Shown: one piece after another, positions 3,034 to 58,867 of the stretch | Layout of the letters: each line of letters opens with the position of its first letter | How positions within the stretch are numbered: position 1 is the stretch's first letter | DNA from: Escherichia coli | Lineage (GTDB): Bacteria; Pseudomonadota; Gammaproteobacteria; Enterobacterales; Enterobacteriaceae | Direction: 5' to 3' (one strand) | Assembly: GCF_013315695.1 (NCBI RefSeq) | Contig: NZ_CP054353.1 | DNA: 64,000 nucleotides | Position numbers and translations under genes: made by a program | Notes under the pieces: model-generated | The model's database searches: none | Told to the model about the DNA's origin: nothing | Seen by the model: only the letters and a program-made list of their open reading frames with translations

Positions 3034-5367
3034 TCAGGTTGTTGCAGGGTCGTCACATTTTGGCAGCCAGTCGCCGTAGCTTTCCTCTTTCAGCGTCAGG
3101 TTGGTCTGTATCCCCTGTTTGGTATGGCGCTTCTCGTAATTCAGTCCGTATTCCTTCAGCATCACCGGCAGCCCCAGCCCGAACATTTTCAGACTGAGTA
3201 CATTCCGGTAGCCGTTTGCCTCCATGTAGGCCAGATAGGCGTGATAGAGGTATTTACGGTAATTACGCGGGATGATACTGGCGTTCCCCATATACATGCC
3301 GCTGGTCTGCAGCAGGGTTTCCAGATAGCCGATAAAATCAAACGTCGGGTCGGCATCCCGTTTGATGTTCAGTGCCTCGTCTGAGTTCTGCTGGGACTGA
3401 AGCAGTGACCGGGCGAGCATCGGGTCGCTGAACTTCTGCATCAGGTGACGCACGATGACCGCCAGCTCGCGGGTGATTTTGTCCTTAAGCTGCGGGTCGC
3501 GCTCCTGCGGGGCTATCTGTTCCGGGAAGTGAATAATCACCCGCCGGCGTGACACGCCGCCGCTGCGGTCGGTGAAGCGCATCGGGTTATTGTTCACGGC
3601 CAGAATCACCGCCGGGATGTGCGTGGAGTACGCATCCCGGTATTTCGGGTCAACGGACACTGCATCGCCGCCGGTGATGGCCTTGAGTCCGGCTCCGTCG
3701 CCGCTCCATTTTTCCTGGTCCGGCAGGCGTATCAGTGAGAAGCCAGTTAACGCGGCACGTTCACGCGGGGATTCCAGCGTCTCGATGGTGGCCGACGTGG
3801 CGTTATCCTCACCGGCCAGCAGGGTGGCGATTTCGGCCATGATACTTTTGCCGCTGCCGCCGGGACCGGTCACCTCCAGAAAGAGCTGCCAGTCGTAGCG
3901 GTTTGCCAGCACCATAAACAGTGCGGCCAGAATCACGTCGCGTTTTTCCGCACGGCCACCGGCGGCACGGTCAAGCCAGCGCCAGAACGCGGGGGCGTGG
4001 GTCTCCAGCGTTTCACCGTCCACCGGCGGGGTGAAATCCACATCGCACAGGGTGCGCATCCAGTGTGACGGACTGTGCGGATGGAACGTGCCGTTCTGCG
4101 TGTCGAGCACGCCGTTACGAAAGCCAATCAGGCGGCGGGAGGGGGCTTCCTGCTGCGGAATAATCAGTTTCAGGGTGTCCACCACGGAGGCCACCTTCCC
4201 GGAGGAGAACGGCGCGCGCAGACGCTGAAACAGCCCGGCCACATCCCGGGCAAAGTCCTGTGGCGGCAGCACCTTCCAGACACCATTTTCATAGCGGGAC
4301 AGAAGCTGGCCGTTGGCATCGACCGCGAGCGCCTCGCCGTAATGCTCATAGATACGCATGGCCTTTTCGCTGGTACTCATGGCGGAAAACTCTGCTTCGC
4401 TCATGGTGTCGAACGGGCTTTCAGCCGGTGGCCGGATGGCATCGTAAATGGCCTTACGGGTGGCCTCCCCGCCGTACTGCGTGAAGGCATCATTCCAGTC
4501 ACCGAAGACCGGCGGCAGGGCAACAACGCCCTCACACGCATCTGCGGCTGCGGCGGCTTTTTTCTGGCCGTCACCGCTGAGGTCACGGTCTGCGGCAAGG
4601 ACAATCTGACAGGCCGGATGCTTCTGCCGGGCAAGGCTGGCCAGAGAAAGGAGGTTCACGGAAGAAAGCGCCACCATCACCGTTTCACCGGTCAGGTGAT
4701 GCACGGTAAGTGCGGTCGCGTATCCCTCCGCTATCCACAGACGTTTTCCGGCCTGATTCTGTCCTTCAAGGGTGTGACAGGTGCCCCTGACCTGTCCGCC
4801 TTTCAGGGTGCGCTTACGGCCGTCAGCACTGATTAACTGAAGGTTAACCAGTTCGCCGCTGTCGTCATACAGTGGCACCACAAGGTCACCGGCGCGCCAG
4901 CTCACGCCACCGGCTCTGTGTGTGCCGGTCAGCATCCGGCATTCCCGGCCGGGAAAGCCCTTGCGGGTCAGGTAGGCGTTACCGGTTCCGGGACGGGTTT
5001 TTGCCATCAGGGTTTGTGCCAGTGCGGCGGCGTTCTTCCGGGCAGCGTCTGTTTCAGCAACGGCGGCGGCCGTCACTGCCGGGTCAGCCGGGGGCAGGCT
5101 GCCGGTCACGGCAGCCACCTTTGCGGCCGCGTCGGACGGAGAGACACCAAACACCTTTCCAACCAGTTTCAGGCCGTCACCGGCACCACACTGATTGCAG
5201 TACCAGGTGCCGCGCCCCTCCCTGTCATCAAAACGGAAGCGGTCACTCCCGCCACAGACCGGACAGGGCTGATGACGGTTTTTCAGCACCTGAATCCCCA
5301 GCGCCGGGAGAATACGCGGCCAGTGGCCGAGCGCATGGCTGACGGTGGCGGTTACGTTCATTTTCAT
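3034..5367 (-). CDS. P4 alpha-type bifunctional primase/helicase (777 aa)
   Basis: N-terminal zinc-binding motif CPVCGG...YCNQCG, central primase region, C-terminal P-loop helicase (GPGGSGKS); size and position match P4 alpha. Confidence 0.9.
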   Translation of the reverse strand: MKMNVTATVSHALGHWPRILPALGIQVLKNRHQPCPVCGGSDRFRFDDREGRGTWYCNQCGAGDGLKLVGKVFGVSPSDAAAKVAAVTGSLPPADPAVTAAAVAETDAARKNAAALAQTLMAKTRPGTGNAYLTRKGFPGRECRMLTGTHRAGGVSWRAGDLVVPLYDDSGELVNLQLISADGRKRTLKGGQVRGTCHTLEGQNQAGKRLWIAEGYATALTVHHLTGETVMVALSSVNLLSLASLARQKHPACQIVLAADRDLSGDGQKKAAAAADACEGVVALPPVFGDWNDAFTQYGGEATRKAIYDAIRPPAESPFDTMSEAEFSAMSTSEKAMRIYEHYGEALAVDANGQLLSRYENGVWKVLPPQDFARDVAGLFQRLRAPFSSGKVASVVDTLKLIIPQQEAPSRRLIGFRNGVLDTQNGTFHPHSPSHWMRTLCDVDFTPPVDGETLETHAPAFWRWLDRAAGGRAEKRDVILAALFMVLANRYDWQLFLEVTGPGGSGKSIMAEIATLLAGEDNATSATIETLESPRERAALTGFSLIRLPDQEKWSGDGAGLKAITGGDAVSVDPKYRDAYSTHIPAVILAVNNNPMRFTDRSGGVSRRRVIIHFPEQIAPQERDPQLKDKITRELAVIVRHLMQKFSDPMLARSLLQSQQNSDEALNIKRDADPTFDFIGYLETLLQTSGMYMGNASIIPRNYRKYLYHAYLAYMEANGYRNVLSLKMFGLGLPVMLKEYGLNYEKRHTKQGIQTNLTLKEESYGDWLPKCDDPATT

Positions 5368-51140: not shown

Positions 51141-52802
51141 TTACGCCGCAAGCAGTTCTTTCGCATTCGCCAGTGTGTTACGTGTGACTTCACTGCCACC
51201 AAGCAGGCGTGCCAGCTCTTGTAACCGCGCTTTTTTATCCAGGGATTGCATGTGCGTTTCTGTCATCGCACCATCGGTTTCTTTGCTGACAAAATAGTGT
51301 TGATGACCACATCCCGCGACTTGTGGCAGGTGGGTAACACACATCACCTGAGTTGATTCGCCAAGTTGACGCAGCAGTTTGCCGACAACTGCCGCTGTTG
51401 GGCCGCTAATCCCTACATCCACTTCATCAAAAATCAGTGCCGGGGTTTCCATTTTACGCGCCGTGATGACCTGAATTGCCAATGCGATGCGGGACAACTC
51501 ACCACCGGATGCGACTTTGGCAATAGGCTGCATTGGCTGACCTGGGTTGGTGGTTACCCGAAACTCAATACGATCAGCGCCGTCAGCGCCCAGGTGATGC
51601 TCGTCAAATTTAACATCGATCGTAAACTGCCCATGCGGCATAGAGAGTGCATGCATACTGTCGGTGATCAGCTGTGCAAGTTCTTCTGCATAGTGCTGGC
51701 GTTGCTGGTGTAACGCGCGCGCCGTTTCCAGTGCCTGCTGATGATGTTTCGTTACCGCCAGCGCGAGCGTTTCTTGTGAGTCGGCCTGATCGTCCAGTTG
51801 CTGCTGTTCTTCCAGTAGCGACTGGTAATACTGTGGCAATGCCTCAGGGCTGACGTGATGTTTACGTGCCAGCGAAATCTGTCTTGAGATGCGCTGTTCA
51901 AGTTCAAACAGTCGGTTGGGATCGAGATCCAGACGATCGCAGTAGTGGCGCAGTTCATCGCTGGCTTCAGCAATCTGGATGGTAGCTTCTTCCAGCATAT
52001 CAAGTACGCCGGACAGTTTGCTGTCCATGCCAATCAATTCGCTCACCAGTTGTTTAGCCGTGTAAAGCTGACTTTGCAGGTTTGCGTCTTCACCGTCGGC
52101 CATTACTGCCAATGCATTCTGGCTGGTAGTCAGCAATTGACCGCTGTTCGCCAGACGTTTGTACTCTTCGTCGATTTGCTCAAACTCTCCGGGCTGCGGA
52201 TTAAATTCGTTAAGTTCTTTTAATTGGTATTGCAGCAGTTCTGCACGGGCGGCGCGTTCCTGACTTAACTGTTGATGATGCGCGAGGTCACGGCAGCTTT
52301 GATGCCACAACTGATAACGTGCGGTCATTTCCTGGAGTAGAGAGGTTTCATTGGCATAGCCATCAAGCAGGAATTTTTGGTGCTCGGGTTTGGTGAGTAA
52401 CTGATGAGCGTGCTGACCATGGATCTGAATCAGCAACTGACCCAGTTCGCGCAGTTGTGAAAGAGGAACCGCTGTACCGTTGATAAAACCACGGGAGCGA
52501 CCATCGCTGCTGATTACGCGACGAAGCAAACATTCATGCCCGTCTTCAAGCTGGTTTTCTTCCAGCCAGCGCAGGGCCGCTGGCGTATCTTTCAGAGAAA
52601 AACGGGCGCACAGGTCAGCGCGAGCAGCGCCGGTACGCACCATGTCGGCTTCAGCGCGACCACCGAGACAAAGACCGAGGGCATCTATTGCAATAGATTT
52701 ACCCGCGCCGGTCTCGCCAGTTATTACGGTCATGCCGCTATGAAAATCAATCTCAAGCTCACGAACGATAGCAAAGTTGCTGATGGTCAGTTGTGCCAAC
52801 AT
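51141..52802 (-). CDS. recN: DNA repair protein RecN (553 aa)
   Basis: SMC-like ATPase with Walker A GETGAGKS; matches E. coli RecN. Confidence 0.95.
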
Positions 52803-52810
52803 AGTTGTTT

Positions 52811-52870
52811 TCCTGTATGAAAAACCATTACTGTTATTGTGTACAGTATAAACTGGTTTTATATACAGTA
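52811..52870 (-). promoter_or_regulatory. recN promoter region with LexA boxes
   Basis: rc reads tactgtatataaaaccagtt, tactgtacacaataacagta, taatggtttttcatacagga, all CTGT-N8-ACAG-like. Confidence 0.7.
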
Positions 52871-52887
52871 AAGAGGCTGGCGTAAAA

Positions 52888-54480
<1,593 letters not shown>

Positions 54481-54514
54481 ATATCTGATGGCCGACGCGA
54501 AGTCGGCCATTTTT

Positions 54515-55156
54515 TTAGCTTAAAAAATCCTGTACTTCCAGCCACGGCGTGTTGAAATCATCTATTTTTTTATATTCGTTCATTGGCAGAACGGCCACGT
54601 TATAACTATCTGTTCCTTCATTCAGATTGAAAATTTGGTAGCCCCGTTCATTAAGCTGGTCCTGAATGCGTCCAAAGATCTCGTCAAGGTAACGATCACC
54701 ATCTTCGCAGGCATCTGCAATTTCATCTTCCTGAGTTATGTCGATAAGCAGACTTCGTAGTGTCTCTGAGGCTGTCAGGTCTTTACACAGATCGTAGAAG
54801 CGGTCAGCAGCAAAATTTGCCAGCTCACCATCTTCTTCTTCGCCTTTCCAGTCAACAATATGGATTAATCCTTCGTTGCGTAGGATTTGTAAAAATGCCT
54901 GCCCCAATGCGTCATTTCCTAAATCGCCACCGCTGCAATTGAGAACGTCTTGCAATCCATATTCGTCTTCATCTTCGTCTTCAAAGATTTCAGGAGTGGT
55001 GGCAAGTTGAGAGACGATACCAGACCATAGCGTTGGCTCGTGGGGGAAAAACACGCTGGCGACAACGTTGAGATCGTCTTCAAAATCCTTATCCCACTCA
55101 ATTACATAATCTTCTGACATAACATCGATATCCTTTCCGAATAATTGAAATGTCAT
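54515..55156 (-). CDS. Hypothetical highly acidic protein (213 aa)
   Basis: Long ORF with normal GC between grpE and yfjD; Asp/Glu-rich ([12 protein letters not shown]); 3' end abuts the grpE terminator hairpin. Confidence 0.5.
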
Positions 55157-55240
55157 TATTGCATTGTGAAGTAAAAGGAAGGAATTGATGGAATCCTAAA
55201 AGGCGGCGATAAGAAAGGCGAACCGGAGCTCGCCACTGTA

Positions 55241-56503
55241 TTACTCCGCCACGCTCTCGCGTAGCGGTTTCACAGGAAAAACTTTTACCTGCTTAATCAT
55301 ATTGTCCTGAACGTCGAGAATATCAATATCGTACTCGCCAATACGCACGCGGGTGCCTGCTACCGGGATCTCCTCCAGCGCTTCCAGAATGACGCCGTTA
55401 ACAGTACGAGCATCATCTTCCGGTAGATGCCAGTTAAAGGCTTTGTTAATTTCTCGCACGTTGGCAGTGCCATCAATAATCACCGAACCGTCGTTTTGTG
55501 GCGTAACTTCTTCGGCAAGTGTTGGCGACATCGACGTGGTGAAATCGCCGACAATCTCTTCCAGAATATCTTCAACCGTCACCAGCCCCTGAATGTCTCC
55601 ATACTCGTTGACGACCAGGCCGACTTTCTTTTTGTTGCGCTGAAACTTCACCAACTGCGTGCTGAGCGGCGTACCTTCCGGGACAAAATAGATCTCGTCC
55701 GCGGCGCGTAGCATGGTTTCTTTGGTGAACTCTTTTTTCTCCGACATGAGTCGCCAGGCTTCACGCACACGCAGCATACTGATGGCGTCGTCCAACGAGT
55801 CACGGTAGAGCACGATACGTCCGTGAGGTGAGTGGGAGAGTTGGCGCAGAATCGATTTCCAGTCATCGTTGATATCAATACCGATAATTTCACTGCGCGG
55901 CACCATGATGTCATCGACGGTCATCTTTTCCAGATCGAGAACCGAAAGCAGCATATCCTGATTGCGACGGGAAATTTGTGAGCGCGATTCGTGCACGATG
56001 GTGCGCAACTCTTCTTTGCTCAAAGAGCCGCTAACCACGATATCGGTTTTGATGCCCATCATGCGCATTAACATGCGGGTAATAGCATTCAGCAACCAGA
56101 CCAGCGGCATCATCAAAATTTGCAGCGGAGCCAGCAGAAAACTACTCGGATAAGCGACTTTTTCCGGGTACAGCGCGGCAATGGTTTTCGGCAATACCTC
56201 AGCAAAAACCAGTACGACAAAAGTCAGCACACCAGTCGCAATTGCCACGCCCGCATCGCCGTACAAACGCATCCCAACAATAGTGCCGAGCGCGGAGGCA
56301 AGAATATTGACCAGGTTATTGCCGATTAACACCAGGCTAATCAGGCGGTCTGGCTTACGCAGCAATTTTTCGACGCGTTTGGCCGAGCGATTACCCTGTT
56401 TCGCCATATGTCGCAGACGATAGCGGTTGAGGGTCATCATTCCGGTTTCGGACCCGGAAAAATAGGCTGAAATGACCACCATGATGATCAGAATAATGAT
56501 CAA
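55241..56503 (-). CDS. yfjD: CNNM/CorC-family membrane protein YfjD (DUF21-CBS-CorC)
   Basis: Matches E. coli YfjD; true start may be a non-ATG codon a few codons upstream. Confidence 0.9.
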   Translation of the reverse strand: MIIILIIMVVISAYFSGSETGMMTLNRYRLRHMAKQGNRSAKRVEKLLRKPDRLISLVLIGNNLVNILASALGTIVGMRLYGDAGVAIATGVLTFVVLVFAEVLPKTIAALYPEKVAYPSSFLLAPLQILMMPLVWLLNAITRMLMRMMGIKTDIVVSGSLSKEELRTIVHESRSQISRRNQDMLLSVLDLEKMTVDDIMVPRSEIIGIDINDDWKSILRQLSHSPHGRIVLYRDSLDDAISMLRVREAWRLMSEKKEFTKETMLRAADEIYFVPEGTPLSTQLVKFQRNKKKVGLVVNEYGDIQGLVTVEDILEEIVGDFTTSMSPTLAEEVTPQNDGSVIIDGTANVREINKAFNWHLPEDDARTVNGVILEALEEIPVAGTRVRIGEYDIDILDVQDNMIKQVKVFPVKPLRESVAE

Positions 56504-56547
56504 CGTAGTAGTAGAAATGTGTTCCAGGGGAAACTCCTTTTCTGGGT

Positions 56548-57339
56548 TTAGCTGATTAACTGCTGGACAATTCGGCTGCCGAAGTAGGCCAGTGTCAGAA
56601 TGACTGCACCCGCAACGTTAAACCAGACGACGCGGCGTCCACGCCATCCTTCATGATAATGTCCCCACAGCAGCACAATATAGACAAACCACGCCACGAT
56701 AGAGAGCACTGCCTTGTCGATATTTTCCATGCTAAATAAGTTGTGCATGTAGAACAGGCCAGTGCAAAGAGTGAGCGTTAGCAGCACCACGCCAATCTGC
56801 GTGATGTGGAACATTTTACGCTCGATACTCATCAATGGCGGCATTTCCTGGTTAAACGCCAGTTTCTTGTTCTTCAGTTGGTAATCAATCCACGCCAGTT
56901 GCAGCGCGTACAGGGCGGCGATAATTAGCGTGGCATAGGAAAAGAGCGATAAGCCAATGTGCACCAGCATCCCAGGCGTTGCTTCCAGATGGGTGATGTA
57001 TTCATTGGGCATGAAGGTCGCCAGCGCCAGGTTGATAAGCGCAAAGGCATAGACAATGGGTAGCAGCAACCAGCCACGATTGCGAGAAGCCACAATGGTC
57101 ATTACCGTACAGATCATCAAACTGACCAATGAACCAACGTTCAGCAGGCTGAGGTTTTGTCCGCTATCACCGTCGGGCAGGATGCGGGCTTCCAGAGCGA
57201 TTGCGTGGCAGACCAGCGCAATGACCGCAGAAATAATAGCCATGCGCCGCCAGCCGCCGTTTTTTTGCAGCAGACCGGGAACAATCAGCGCAAGACTGAC
57301 GGAGTAGGCGACAAGCGCGAGCAGAGCAAAAACGGGCAT
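56548..57339 (-). CDS. ypjD: Inner membrane protein YpjD (263 aa)
   Basis: Multi-TM protein matching E. coli YpjD; start at internal ATG 57339. Confidence 0.85.
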   Translation of the reverse strand: MPVFALLALVAYSVSLALIVPGLLQKNGGWRRMAIISAVIALVCHAIALEARILPDGDSGQNLSLLNVGSLVSLMICTVMTIVASRNRGWLLLPIVYAFALINLALATFMPNEYITHLEATPGMLVHIGLSLFSYATLIIAALYALQLAWIDYQLKNKKLAFNQEMPPLMSIERKMFHITQIGVVLLTLTLCTGLFYMHNLFSMENIDKAVLSIVAWFVYIVLLWGHYHEGWRGRRVVWFNVAGAVILTLAYFGSRIVQQLIS

Positions 57340-57505
57340 AGTAATGTCGACAGTTTGAGCAATAAGAAAGAGAAGCAGTATAGCGTCAGGTGAACGCTGC
57401 TCCAACCGTTGCATAACAACAAAGACGCCTTCATGTTATACTGCGGCAAAATACTGATGATGTGTCGCGATTGCGGCCAACCGTTTCCACCCCAGGCGAG
57501 AGACA

Positions 57506-58867
57506 ATGTTTGATAATTTAACCGATCGTTTGTCGCGCACGCTGCGCAATATCAGTGGCCGTGGACGCCTCACTGAAGACAACGTAAAAGATACGCTGCG
57601 CGAAGTGCGCATGGCGCTGCTGGAGGCGGACGTCGCCCTGCCGGTAGTGCGTGAGTTTATCAATCGCGTAAAAGAGAAAGCGGTTGGTCATGAAGTTAAT
57701 AAGAGCCTGACGCCGGGGCAGGAGTTCGTCAAAATCGTCCGTAACGAACTGGTTGCGGCGATGGGCGAAGAGAACCAGACCCTGAATCTGGCTGCGCAAC
57801 CGCCAGCGGTGGTACTGATGGCGGGCCTGCAAGGTGCCGGTAAAACAACCAGCGTGGGCAAGCTCGGTAAGTTCCTGCGTGAGAAGCACAAGAAAAAAGT
57901 GTTGGTGGTTTCTGCCGACGTTTATCGTCCGGCGGCAATCAAACAGCTGGAGACGCTGGCAGAGCAGGTGGGCGTTGATTTCTTCCCTTCTGATGTTGGT
58001 CAGAAGCCGGTAGATATCGTTAACGCGGCGCTGAAAGAAGCCAAACTGAAATTCTACGACGTGCTGCTGGTGGATACCGCCGGTCGTCTGCACGTTGACG
58101 AAGCGATGATGGACGAGATCAAACAAGTCCATGCGTCGATTAATCCGGTTGAAACCCTGTTTGTGGTTGATGCCATGACTGGTCAGGATGCGGCCAATAC
58201 GGCAAAAGCATTCAATGAAGCGTTACCGCTTACTGGTGTAGTGTTGACCAAAGTGGACGGCGATGCCCGCGGTGGTGCGGCGCTCTCTATTCGTCACATC
58301 ACTGGCAAACCGATCAAGTTCCTCGGTGTTGGCGAGAAAACTGAGGCGCTGGAGCCGTTCCATCCGGACCGCATCGCGTCGCGTATTCTCGGCATGGGCG
58401 ACGTACTGTCACTGATCGAAGATATTGAAAGCAAAGTTGACCGCGCGCAGGCAGAGAAATTAGCCAGCAAGCTGAAAAAAGGCGACGGCTTCGATCTCAA
58501 CGACTTTCTTGAGCAGCTGCGCCAGATGAAAAATATGGGCGGCATGGCTAGCCTGATGGGCAAGCTGCCGGGCATGGGGCAGATCCCGGATAACGTCAAG
58601 TCGCAGATGGACGATAAAGTGCTGGTGCGTATGGAAGCCATCATCAACTCGATGACGATGAAAGAGCGCGCTAAGCCAGAAATCATCAAAGGTTCGCGTA
58701 AGCGTCGTATCGCCGCCGGTTGCGGGATGCAGGTACAGGACGTTAACCGCCTTCTGAAACAGTTCGACGACATGCAGCGCATGATGAAGAAAATGAAGAA
58801 GGGCGGGATGGCGAAGATGATGAGAAGCATGAAAGGGATGATGCCGCCGGGATTTCCTGGTCGCTAA
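57506..58867 (+). CDS. ffh: Signal recognition particle protein Ffh (453 aa)
   Basis: SRP54-type GTPase (GLQGAGKTT, DTAGR) and Met-rich C-terminal M domain. Confidence 0.97.
   Translation: MFDNLTDRLSRTLRNISGRGRLTEDNVKDTLREVRMALLEADVALPVVREFINRVKEKAVGHEVNKSLTPGQEFVKIVRNELVAAMGEENQTLNLAAQPPAVVLMAGLQGAGKTTSVGKLGKFLREKHKKKVLVVSADVYRPAAIKQLETLAEQVGVDFFPSDVGQKPVDIVNAALKEAKLKFYDVLLVDTAGRLHVDEAMMDEIKQVHASINPVETLFVVDAMTGQDAANTAKAFNEALPLTGVVLTKVDGDARGGAALSIRHITGKPIKFLGVGEKTEALEPFHPDRIASRILGMGDVLSLIEDIESKVDRAQAEKLASKLKKGDGFDLNDFLEQLRQMKNMGGMASLMGKLPGMGQIPDNVKSQMDDKVLVRMEAIINSMTMKERAKPEIIKGSRKRRIAAGCGMQVQDVNRLLKQFDDMQRMMKKMKKGGMAKMMRSMKGMMPPGFPGR

Follow-up and report, generated by a model that had tools for sequence, protein, structure and literature searches.

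A very acidic DUF6630 protein encoded in a variable cassette between grpE and yfjD of Escherichia coli

In Escherichia coli K-12 MG1655 the genes yfjD (b4461) and grpE (b2614) lie 54 bp apart, with no gene between them. The stretch of DNA analysed here, 64,000 nucleotides of the E. coli contig NZ_CP054353.1 (assembly GCF_013315695.1; hereafter the window), holds an open reading frame (ORF) between the same two genes, and the question that this locus raises is whether the ORF is a genuine gene and what its product might do. An earlier account made from the letters alone, which we call the sequence-only reading, had placed the ORF at 54515-55156, had given the K-12 gene order correctly and had proposed that the gene might be lineage-specific or under-annotated. 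The minus-strand frame is indeed free of stop codons over 54515-55156, and its first ATG would give a product of 213 aa. The translation of this ORF matched the Pfam family PF20335 (DUF6630) over residues 49-199, with a score of 50.8 bits (E = 3.1e-13) at a gathering threshold of 27 bits, and 24 of 24 aligned relatives matched the same family. In the MS 21-1 locus, which is 100% identical to the window here, the Prokaryotic Genome Annotation Pipeline (PGAP) labels the gene between grpE and yfjD 'DUF6630 family protein' (WP_001287920.1); the other carriers listed mostly bear the same label and a few are given as 'hypothetical protein' or 'cytoplasmic protein'. The gene is therefore not under-annotated. 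The sequence-only reading had itself named an already annotated conserved gene as the finding that would tell against its proposal, and this is what the RefSeq/PGAP and PF20335 entries make of the ORF. The gene call itself adds nothing new, as RefSeq and Pfam already list the gene. What is of note is a very acidic protein with a confidently predicted but unmatched fold and no literature, encoded in a tiny cassette, set between two core genes, that Escherichia and Salmonella lose, regain and swap. In the library searched no literature was found on DUF6630, PF20335 or the WP accessions, nor anything relevant on a hypervariable yfjD/grpE locus; NCBIfam, PADLOC and PHROGs gave no meaningful matches, and the PADLOC models assigned no family to five DUF6630 members at E values up to 1.

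A spurious or decaying, functionless ORF would be expected to look in some respects like this one, given its low GC content, its patchy distribution and the truncated proteins that occur among the database members of the family. Pairwise comparisons by the Nei-Gojobori method, however, gave ratios of nonsynonymous to synonymous substitution (dN/dS) of 0.08-0.17 in all 21 pairs with an estimable synonymous distance (dS), including pairs close to synonymous saturation, and no internal stop codons were present in the seven orthologues examined. The DUF6630 gene is under purifying selection. Because of the Pfam score, the dN/dS values and the absence of internal stops, the frame must be regarded as more than a chance ORF. 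It is also intact at 199-201 aa in three genera, its start codon and ribosome-binding box are conserved, and its product has a confident predicted fold. The spurious-ORF reading, rejected on the selection analysis, is effectively refuted, and we consider it practically certain that the ORF is a real, already annotated accessory gene for a 201-aa, extremely acidic protein of the DUF6630 family.

The length of 213 aa that had been given for the product did not survive comparison. Upstream regions were aligned for seven loci: Superficieibacter, two allele classes from Salmonella and four Escherichia loci, of which two are E. coli alleles. All seven, from three genera, keep the ATG at 55120 and the GAAAGGA box before it unchanged. 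The ATG at 55156 was replaced by AAAAG in the Salmonella class III and Superficieibacter loci (2/7) and in one Escherichia locus a single inserted nucleotide shifts it out of frame. Homologues measure 199-201 aa, and PGAP and nearly all homologues give 201 aa. The start at 55156 was rejected, since its ATG is absent or frameshifted in three of the seven loci and the homologues are shorter; from this alignment, the ATG at 55120 is the conserved start of the gene. The features of the gene are as follows:

54515-55120, minus strand: coding sequence of the DUF6630-family protein, 606 nt, 201 aa, identical to WP_001287920.1 (Pfam, PGAP, dN/dS, AlphaFold2)
55121-55156, minus strand: 5' extension of 36 nt, read as a non-coding leader and promoter region (upstream ATG not conserved; homologue lengths)
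55131-55137, minus strand: Shine-Dalgarno-like GAAAGGA, 10 nt before the ATG at 55120 (invariant in the aligned loci)

The product had been described as highly acidic, and this proved to be its most extreme property. The 201-aa protein has an isoelectric point of 4.05, with 50 Asp/Glu residues against 11 Lys/Arg and a net charge of -39; the run rich in Asp and Glu quoted in the sequence-only reading is present in it. The window has 64 ORFs of 150 aa or more, and in net charge this one is the extreme outlier, at -0.188 per residue compared with -0.069 for the runner-up. No signal peptide or transmembrane (TM) segment was predicted in it, and judged by its sequence the product is cytoplasmic. 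The supposedly normal GC content, on the other hand, was not found: the gene has 43.9% GC and 42% GC at third codon positions (GC3), whereas the flanking recN, nadK, grpE and yfjD have 50-52% GC with 51-61% GC3, and GC averages 50.3% over the window.

The family to which the protein belongs is tiny. A phmmer search of 1.84 billion proteins returned 29 representatives at 50% clustering, and further profile searches brought in just a few distant members, none of them a domain fusion; all homologues have a single domain. The window protein is a member with no differences from PF20335 and WP_001287920.1: its profile match lies above threshold, its RefSeq entry is identical, and it is a single domain of about 200 aa, within the range of about 180-225 aa that goes with the signature D-W-[KR]-G-E ... 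G-x-D-x-Y. The motifs D-W-[KR]-G-E-x-E..G..L..F...R and G-x-D-x-Y are kept down to 22% identity, with D90, E94, L156 and D171 invariant in the family alignments and E96, G98 and R107 nearly so. The extreme acidity is confined to the Enterobacteriaceae clade. Members from Budvicia-type genomes are moderately acidic, and charge is neutral in the most distant ones, which have a hydrophobic (TM) helix at the N-terminus. A fragment 77% identical to the enterobacterial gene also turned up on a 413-bp contig (L018, coverage 1.0) of a Streptomyces cahuitamycinicus assembly; that contig is almost certainly contamination.

From an alignment of 24 sequences AlphaFold2 produced a confident model, with a mean predicted local distance difference test score (pLDDT) of 91.4 and a predicted template modelling score (pTM) of 0.88. 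The modelled protein is compact and alpha/beta, with nine helices and a four-stranded sheet, and the region of the D90/E94/D171/R107 cluster would fall at the end of a beta-strand and in a hairpin turn. Comparison of the model with solved and viral structures yielded no fold match and none that was enzyme-like, and in a profile search of Protein Data Bank sequences the best hit (E = 0.049) spanned only about 45 residues.

How widely is the gene distributed, and does it always occupy the same place? Among 5426 complete E. coli genomes 303 (5.6%) carry it, each in one chromosomal copy. The window allele, at 95% or more nucleotide identity, accounts for 10 of these carriers, and the other 293, including E24377A, have an allele about 82-83% identical. 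Wherever the neighbourhood of a carrier locus was examined, the gene stood in the grpE-yfjD slot, as it did in all 11 metagenomic loci recovered. The order ypjD-yfjD-X-grpE-nadK was found in Escherichia sp. E4742, another Escherichia locus, Salmonella enterica and Superficieibacter electus; E. whittamii was added to these hosts by homology alone. A profile scan of genome contigs matched only E. coli, E. whittamii, Superficieibacter and the one contaminant contig, and the database clusters place the window allele class in E. coli, E. albertii and E. fergusonii. Among species-representative genomes, most Escherichia species and S. enterica showed no match; therefore presence and absence are apparently polymorphic in those species too. 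The suggestion of a lineage-specific gene holds in part: the gene varies among lineages, but it is not specific to E. coli, since it also occurs in other Escherichia, S. enterica and Superficieibacter.

No copies were found in phage records, on viral contigs or on true plasmids. Two PLSDB entries labelled as Salmonella plasmids did match. One of them, NZ_LN868944.1 (728 kb), carries the chromosomal block ffh-ypjD-yfjD-DUF6630-grpE-nadK-recN and is a mis-assigned segment of a Salmonella chromosome; the other, NZ_CP110658.1 (272 kb, large and non-mobilizable), has the same match and is probably a mis-assigned chromosome piece too.

Alignment of occupied and empty sites defined the unit that comes and goes at this locus:

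54481-55240, no strand: replaceable cassette (about 0.76 kb) flanked by the stop codons of grpE and yfjD, in place of a 53-54 bp spacer (occupied/empty alignment)

The empty-site spacer measures 53 bp in HS-02, against the 54 bp of MG1655. With the cassette GrpE has 196 aa and ends AKAK*, while in empty-site E. coli such as K-12 it has 197 aa and ends AKAKA*; the comparison was made between window positions 54481-54486 and positions 4082-4137 of an empty-site locus (L003). Because the GrpE end differs in this way, the cassette boundary reaches the last codons of grpE. On the other side, divergence rises in the last ~90 nt of yfjD. Flanking repeats and mobile-element signatures were absent from the cassette. 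The empty and occupied junctions share seven nucleotides, AGCTTAA; this match is compatible with chance and was not taken for a deletion scar.

The cassette evolves independently of its flanks in sliding-identity comparisons. The slot holds at least four deeply divergent allele classes, at 33-100% amino acid identity, and the fourth class, at only 33% identity, is convergent with a grpE whose product shares 94% of its residues with E. coli GrpE. In two Salmonella loci yfjD, grpE and nadK agree at 95-100% but the cassettes at only 59-71%. The reverse was seen between Salmonella class A and the common E. coli allele (E9), whose cassettes share 94-97% of nucleotides and whose flanks share about 80-85%; for the Salmonella class A and E. 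coli pair dS was 0.21 for the gene itself, against 0.59 for grpE and 1.27 for yfjD. Within E. coli, the window allele and the common allele differ at 19% of residues with a dS of 0.73, against 0.08-0.17 in the flanks. The gene tree is strongly discordant with the flanks, and in all hosts the gene has a GC content of 43-45% and the flanks one of 50-55%, with a local dip to 0.43-0.45 across the cassette in the composition profile of the window. The simplest reading of these alignments is an old cassette that has been repeatedly lost and whose allele classes pass between lineages, and between genera, by homologous recombination in the conserved flanks.

Distant homologues were found elsewhere, and counting the grpE-yfjD slot no partner gene is conserved across the five different contexts. 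In Budvicia-type genomes a homologue of 24-31% identity lies between recR and htpG (L009, 6001-6558; L010, 6001-6555); an AT-rich spacer of about 260 bp follows recR, then comes the DUF6630 homologue, and the sigma-32 promoter of htpG, CTTGAAA-N14-CCCCATCT, stands between DUF6630 and htpG. One distant homologue sits between gsiA and DUF924/moeA, and one stands alone beside a 752-aa unknown protein. A 35% identical homologue ends an array of small ORFs in a decayed VgrG/DUF4123 island of the type VI secretion system (T6SS), near an integrase and an insertion sequence (IS). This auxiliary island (ERZ1714338:contig_1248, L021, 3878-10600) contains a C-terminal fragment of VgrG and a truncated DUF4123 adaptor; its small ORFs include internal duplications (two copies beginning MKRYNEIYRFF and two beginning MGLWPFEYQAVKNF) and have no Pfam matches, and it terminates in the DUF6630 homologue and an IS3-type transposase. 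The island has the look of a graveyard of orphan immunity genes.

What the protein does was approached from these properties. The reading that we favour is that it would act alone, with no partner encoded beside it, and would bind or inhibit a basic protein stoichiometrically, through electrostatic contacts; this basic protein would probably be a nucleic-acid-binding one. In its most plausible form it would be an orphan immunity-type protein that neutralises a toxin from competing bacteria, and its presence or absence and its allele polymorphism would then mirror the toxins met by each lineage. We arrive at this reading because of the charge of the protein, its solitary gene, the low GC content, the presence/absence pattern with deep allele classes and the one homologue in a T6SS island. 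It is the best explanation overall, though we give it somewhat less than an even chance, and a stoichiometric acidic binder or inhibitor of the orphan-immunity type is a best guess, put forward tentatively. Orphan immunity proteins of the T6SS, of contact-dependent inhibition (CDI)/Rhs systems and of the colicin type resemble the product in being small, cytoplasmic, very acidic and solitary with low GC, in their polymorphic presence with deep alleles at a fixed locus, and in the association of one homologue with a VgrG/DUF4123 island. Immunity-like proteins of the SUKH superfamily (SMI1/KNR4, Syd) are alpha+beta, often acidic and often encoded by solo genes, and the product resembles them in its alpha+beta build, similar size, acidity and solo gene. 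A bolder version is doubtful. In it DUF6630 would represent a hitherto overlooked family of immunity or decoy proteins that stand alone and have a new fold; the gene would be held in a recombination cassette of its own between yfjD and grpE, and frequency-dependent selection by toxins delivered between bacteria would keep up the deep allele classes that the genera share. If true, the immunity or decoy reading would offer a compact model of single-gene protection that spreads by homologous recombination without mobile elements; if wrong, this is one of many uncharacterised accessory genes.

Several observations weigh against the immunity-type binder. The product differs from known orphan immunity proteins in having no adjacent toxin, no Pfam immunity homology, no sign of diversifying selection and a motif strongly conserved across the family. 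No cognate toxin gene adjoined the gene in any context examined, its neighbours in the window being yfjD and grpE; of the toxin adjacency that marks immunity proteins there is only the one distant (35%) homologue in the VgrG/DUF4123 island, and that context comes from a single metagenomic contig. A Pfam scan of 24 members at E values up to 5 returned only DUF6630 and noise, with no immunity family, and the five members run through PADLOC matched nothing there. The ratio of nonsynonymous to synonymous polymorphism (pN/pS) never exceeded 1, pairwise or in 30-codon sliding windows, and so does not hint at a binding surface under diversifying selection. The retention of the motif down to 22% identity suggests that the site or ligand is conserved, and not that each lineage has its own partner, and the neutral distant members with an N-terminal TM helix suggest the same.

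Such a conserved site is what a ligand or cation binder, or a small enzyme, acting through D90/E94/D171/R107 would show, possibly in connection with the CorC/CNNM-type YfjD, with the buffering of divalent cations or polyamines as one example. To the invariance of D90, E94 and D171, and the near-invariance of E96, G98 and R107, this explanation can add the placement of the conserved residues at a strand end and hairpin turn in the model and the fact that in three genera or more (Escherichia, Salmonella and Superficieibacter) the gene comes next after yfjD and is read from the same strand. A conserved terminator-like hairpin nevertheless lies between yfjD and the gene, and yfjD is not a neighbour of the homologues found in Budvicia, between gsiA and moeA, or in the T6SS island, for which reasons the adjacency to yfjD reads as inherited synteny; no enzyme fold or family was matched either. 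We regard this explanation as improbable. Slightly less unlikely is a cytoplasmic acidic regulator or nucleic-acid mimic that binds a conserved basic host protein, such as a nucleoid protein, an RNase or a polymerase subunit. The acidic E. coli proteins RraB, MsyB and Syd and the chromosomal DNA-mimic proteins are models for a host-directed role of this kind. The DNA mimics and anti-restriction proteins Ocr and ArdA have a comparably extreme negative charge density, but the product shares neither fold nor sequence similarity with them, is absent from phages, viral contigs and true plasmids and is encoded in the chromosome between core genes; neither a structure like those of known mimics nor phage or plasmid carriage was found. 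This absence argues against an anti-restriction role tied to mobile elements. A part in the heat-shock chaperone network, as an accessory to DnaK/GrpE or HtpG, would account for the position beside grpE throughout the Enterobacteriaceae loci, the 33% identical allele included, and for the 24-31% identical homologue immediately upstream of htpG in Budvicia-type genomes, a chaperone gene thus adjoining in a second, independent location. The chance of such adjacency was estimated at a few percent, which is suggestive only. The gene is convergent with grpE and so not co-transcribed with it, the other homologues have no chaperone neighbour, and most E. coli lack the gene. Scanning 25 loci for the strict sigma-32 consensus TTGAAA-N12-16-CCCATNT, we found it only before htpG in the two Budvicia-type loci, where it lies after DUF6630, and before no DUF6630 gene. 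A heat-shock-regulon link was rejected as the main explanation on this ground, and we hold the chaperone-factor explanation to be very improbable.

The expression of the gene can be considered from the signals around it and from its flanking genes:

53890-54480, plus strand: grpE flank, 196-aa form ending AKAK* (RefSeq)
54487-54511, no strand: hairpin common to the convergent grpE and DUF6630 genes, the grpE terminator (scan; identical in the two occupied E. coli alleles examined)
55141-55170, minus strand: promoter-like region TTCACA-18-AATTAT, sigma-70-like (consensus scan)
55163-55155, minus strand: extended -10-like TGCAATAAT, overlapping the upstream ATG (alignment)
55217-55234, minus strand: yfjD terminator-like hairpin GGCGAGCTCCGGTTCGCC with a T-run, between yfjD and the DUF6630 gene (scan; kept in 7/7 loci)
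55241-56527, minus strand: yfjD flank, HlyC/CorC-family transporter, upstream on the same strand (RefSeq)

The convergence with grpE and the end of the gene at the grpE terminator hairpin, as described in the sequence-only reading, were both confirmed, the stop codon lying 4 nt from the terminator-like hairpin. This hairpin is probably bidirectional; empty-site E. coli have a different grpE terminator. The extended -10-like element, TGnAATAAT, is kept in the five Escherichia-type loci of the alignment and is TGATAAAAG in the other two of the seven. Either predicted promoter would put the start of transcription downstream of the ATG at 55156. With the yfjD hairpin upstream, its own Shine-Dalgarno-like box and promoter-like region, and an end at the hairpin common with grpE, the DUF6630 gene appears from these elements to be its own transcription unit.

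No Rfam families were matched within 52000-58000. Two long frames overlap the neighbouring genes: a 540-aa minus-strand frame at 52888-54510, which consists of nadK and some 250 stop-free codons antisense to the whole of grpE and the nadK-grpE spacer, and a 349-aa plus-strand frame at 53431-54480, which is grpE extended upstream. RefSeq gives 292 aa for nadK and 196 aa for grpE, and both long frames are probably artefacts of ORF calling rather than genes.
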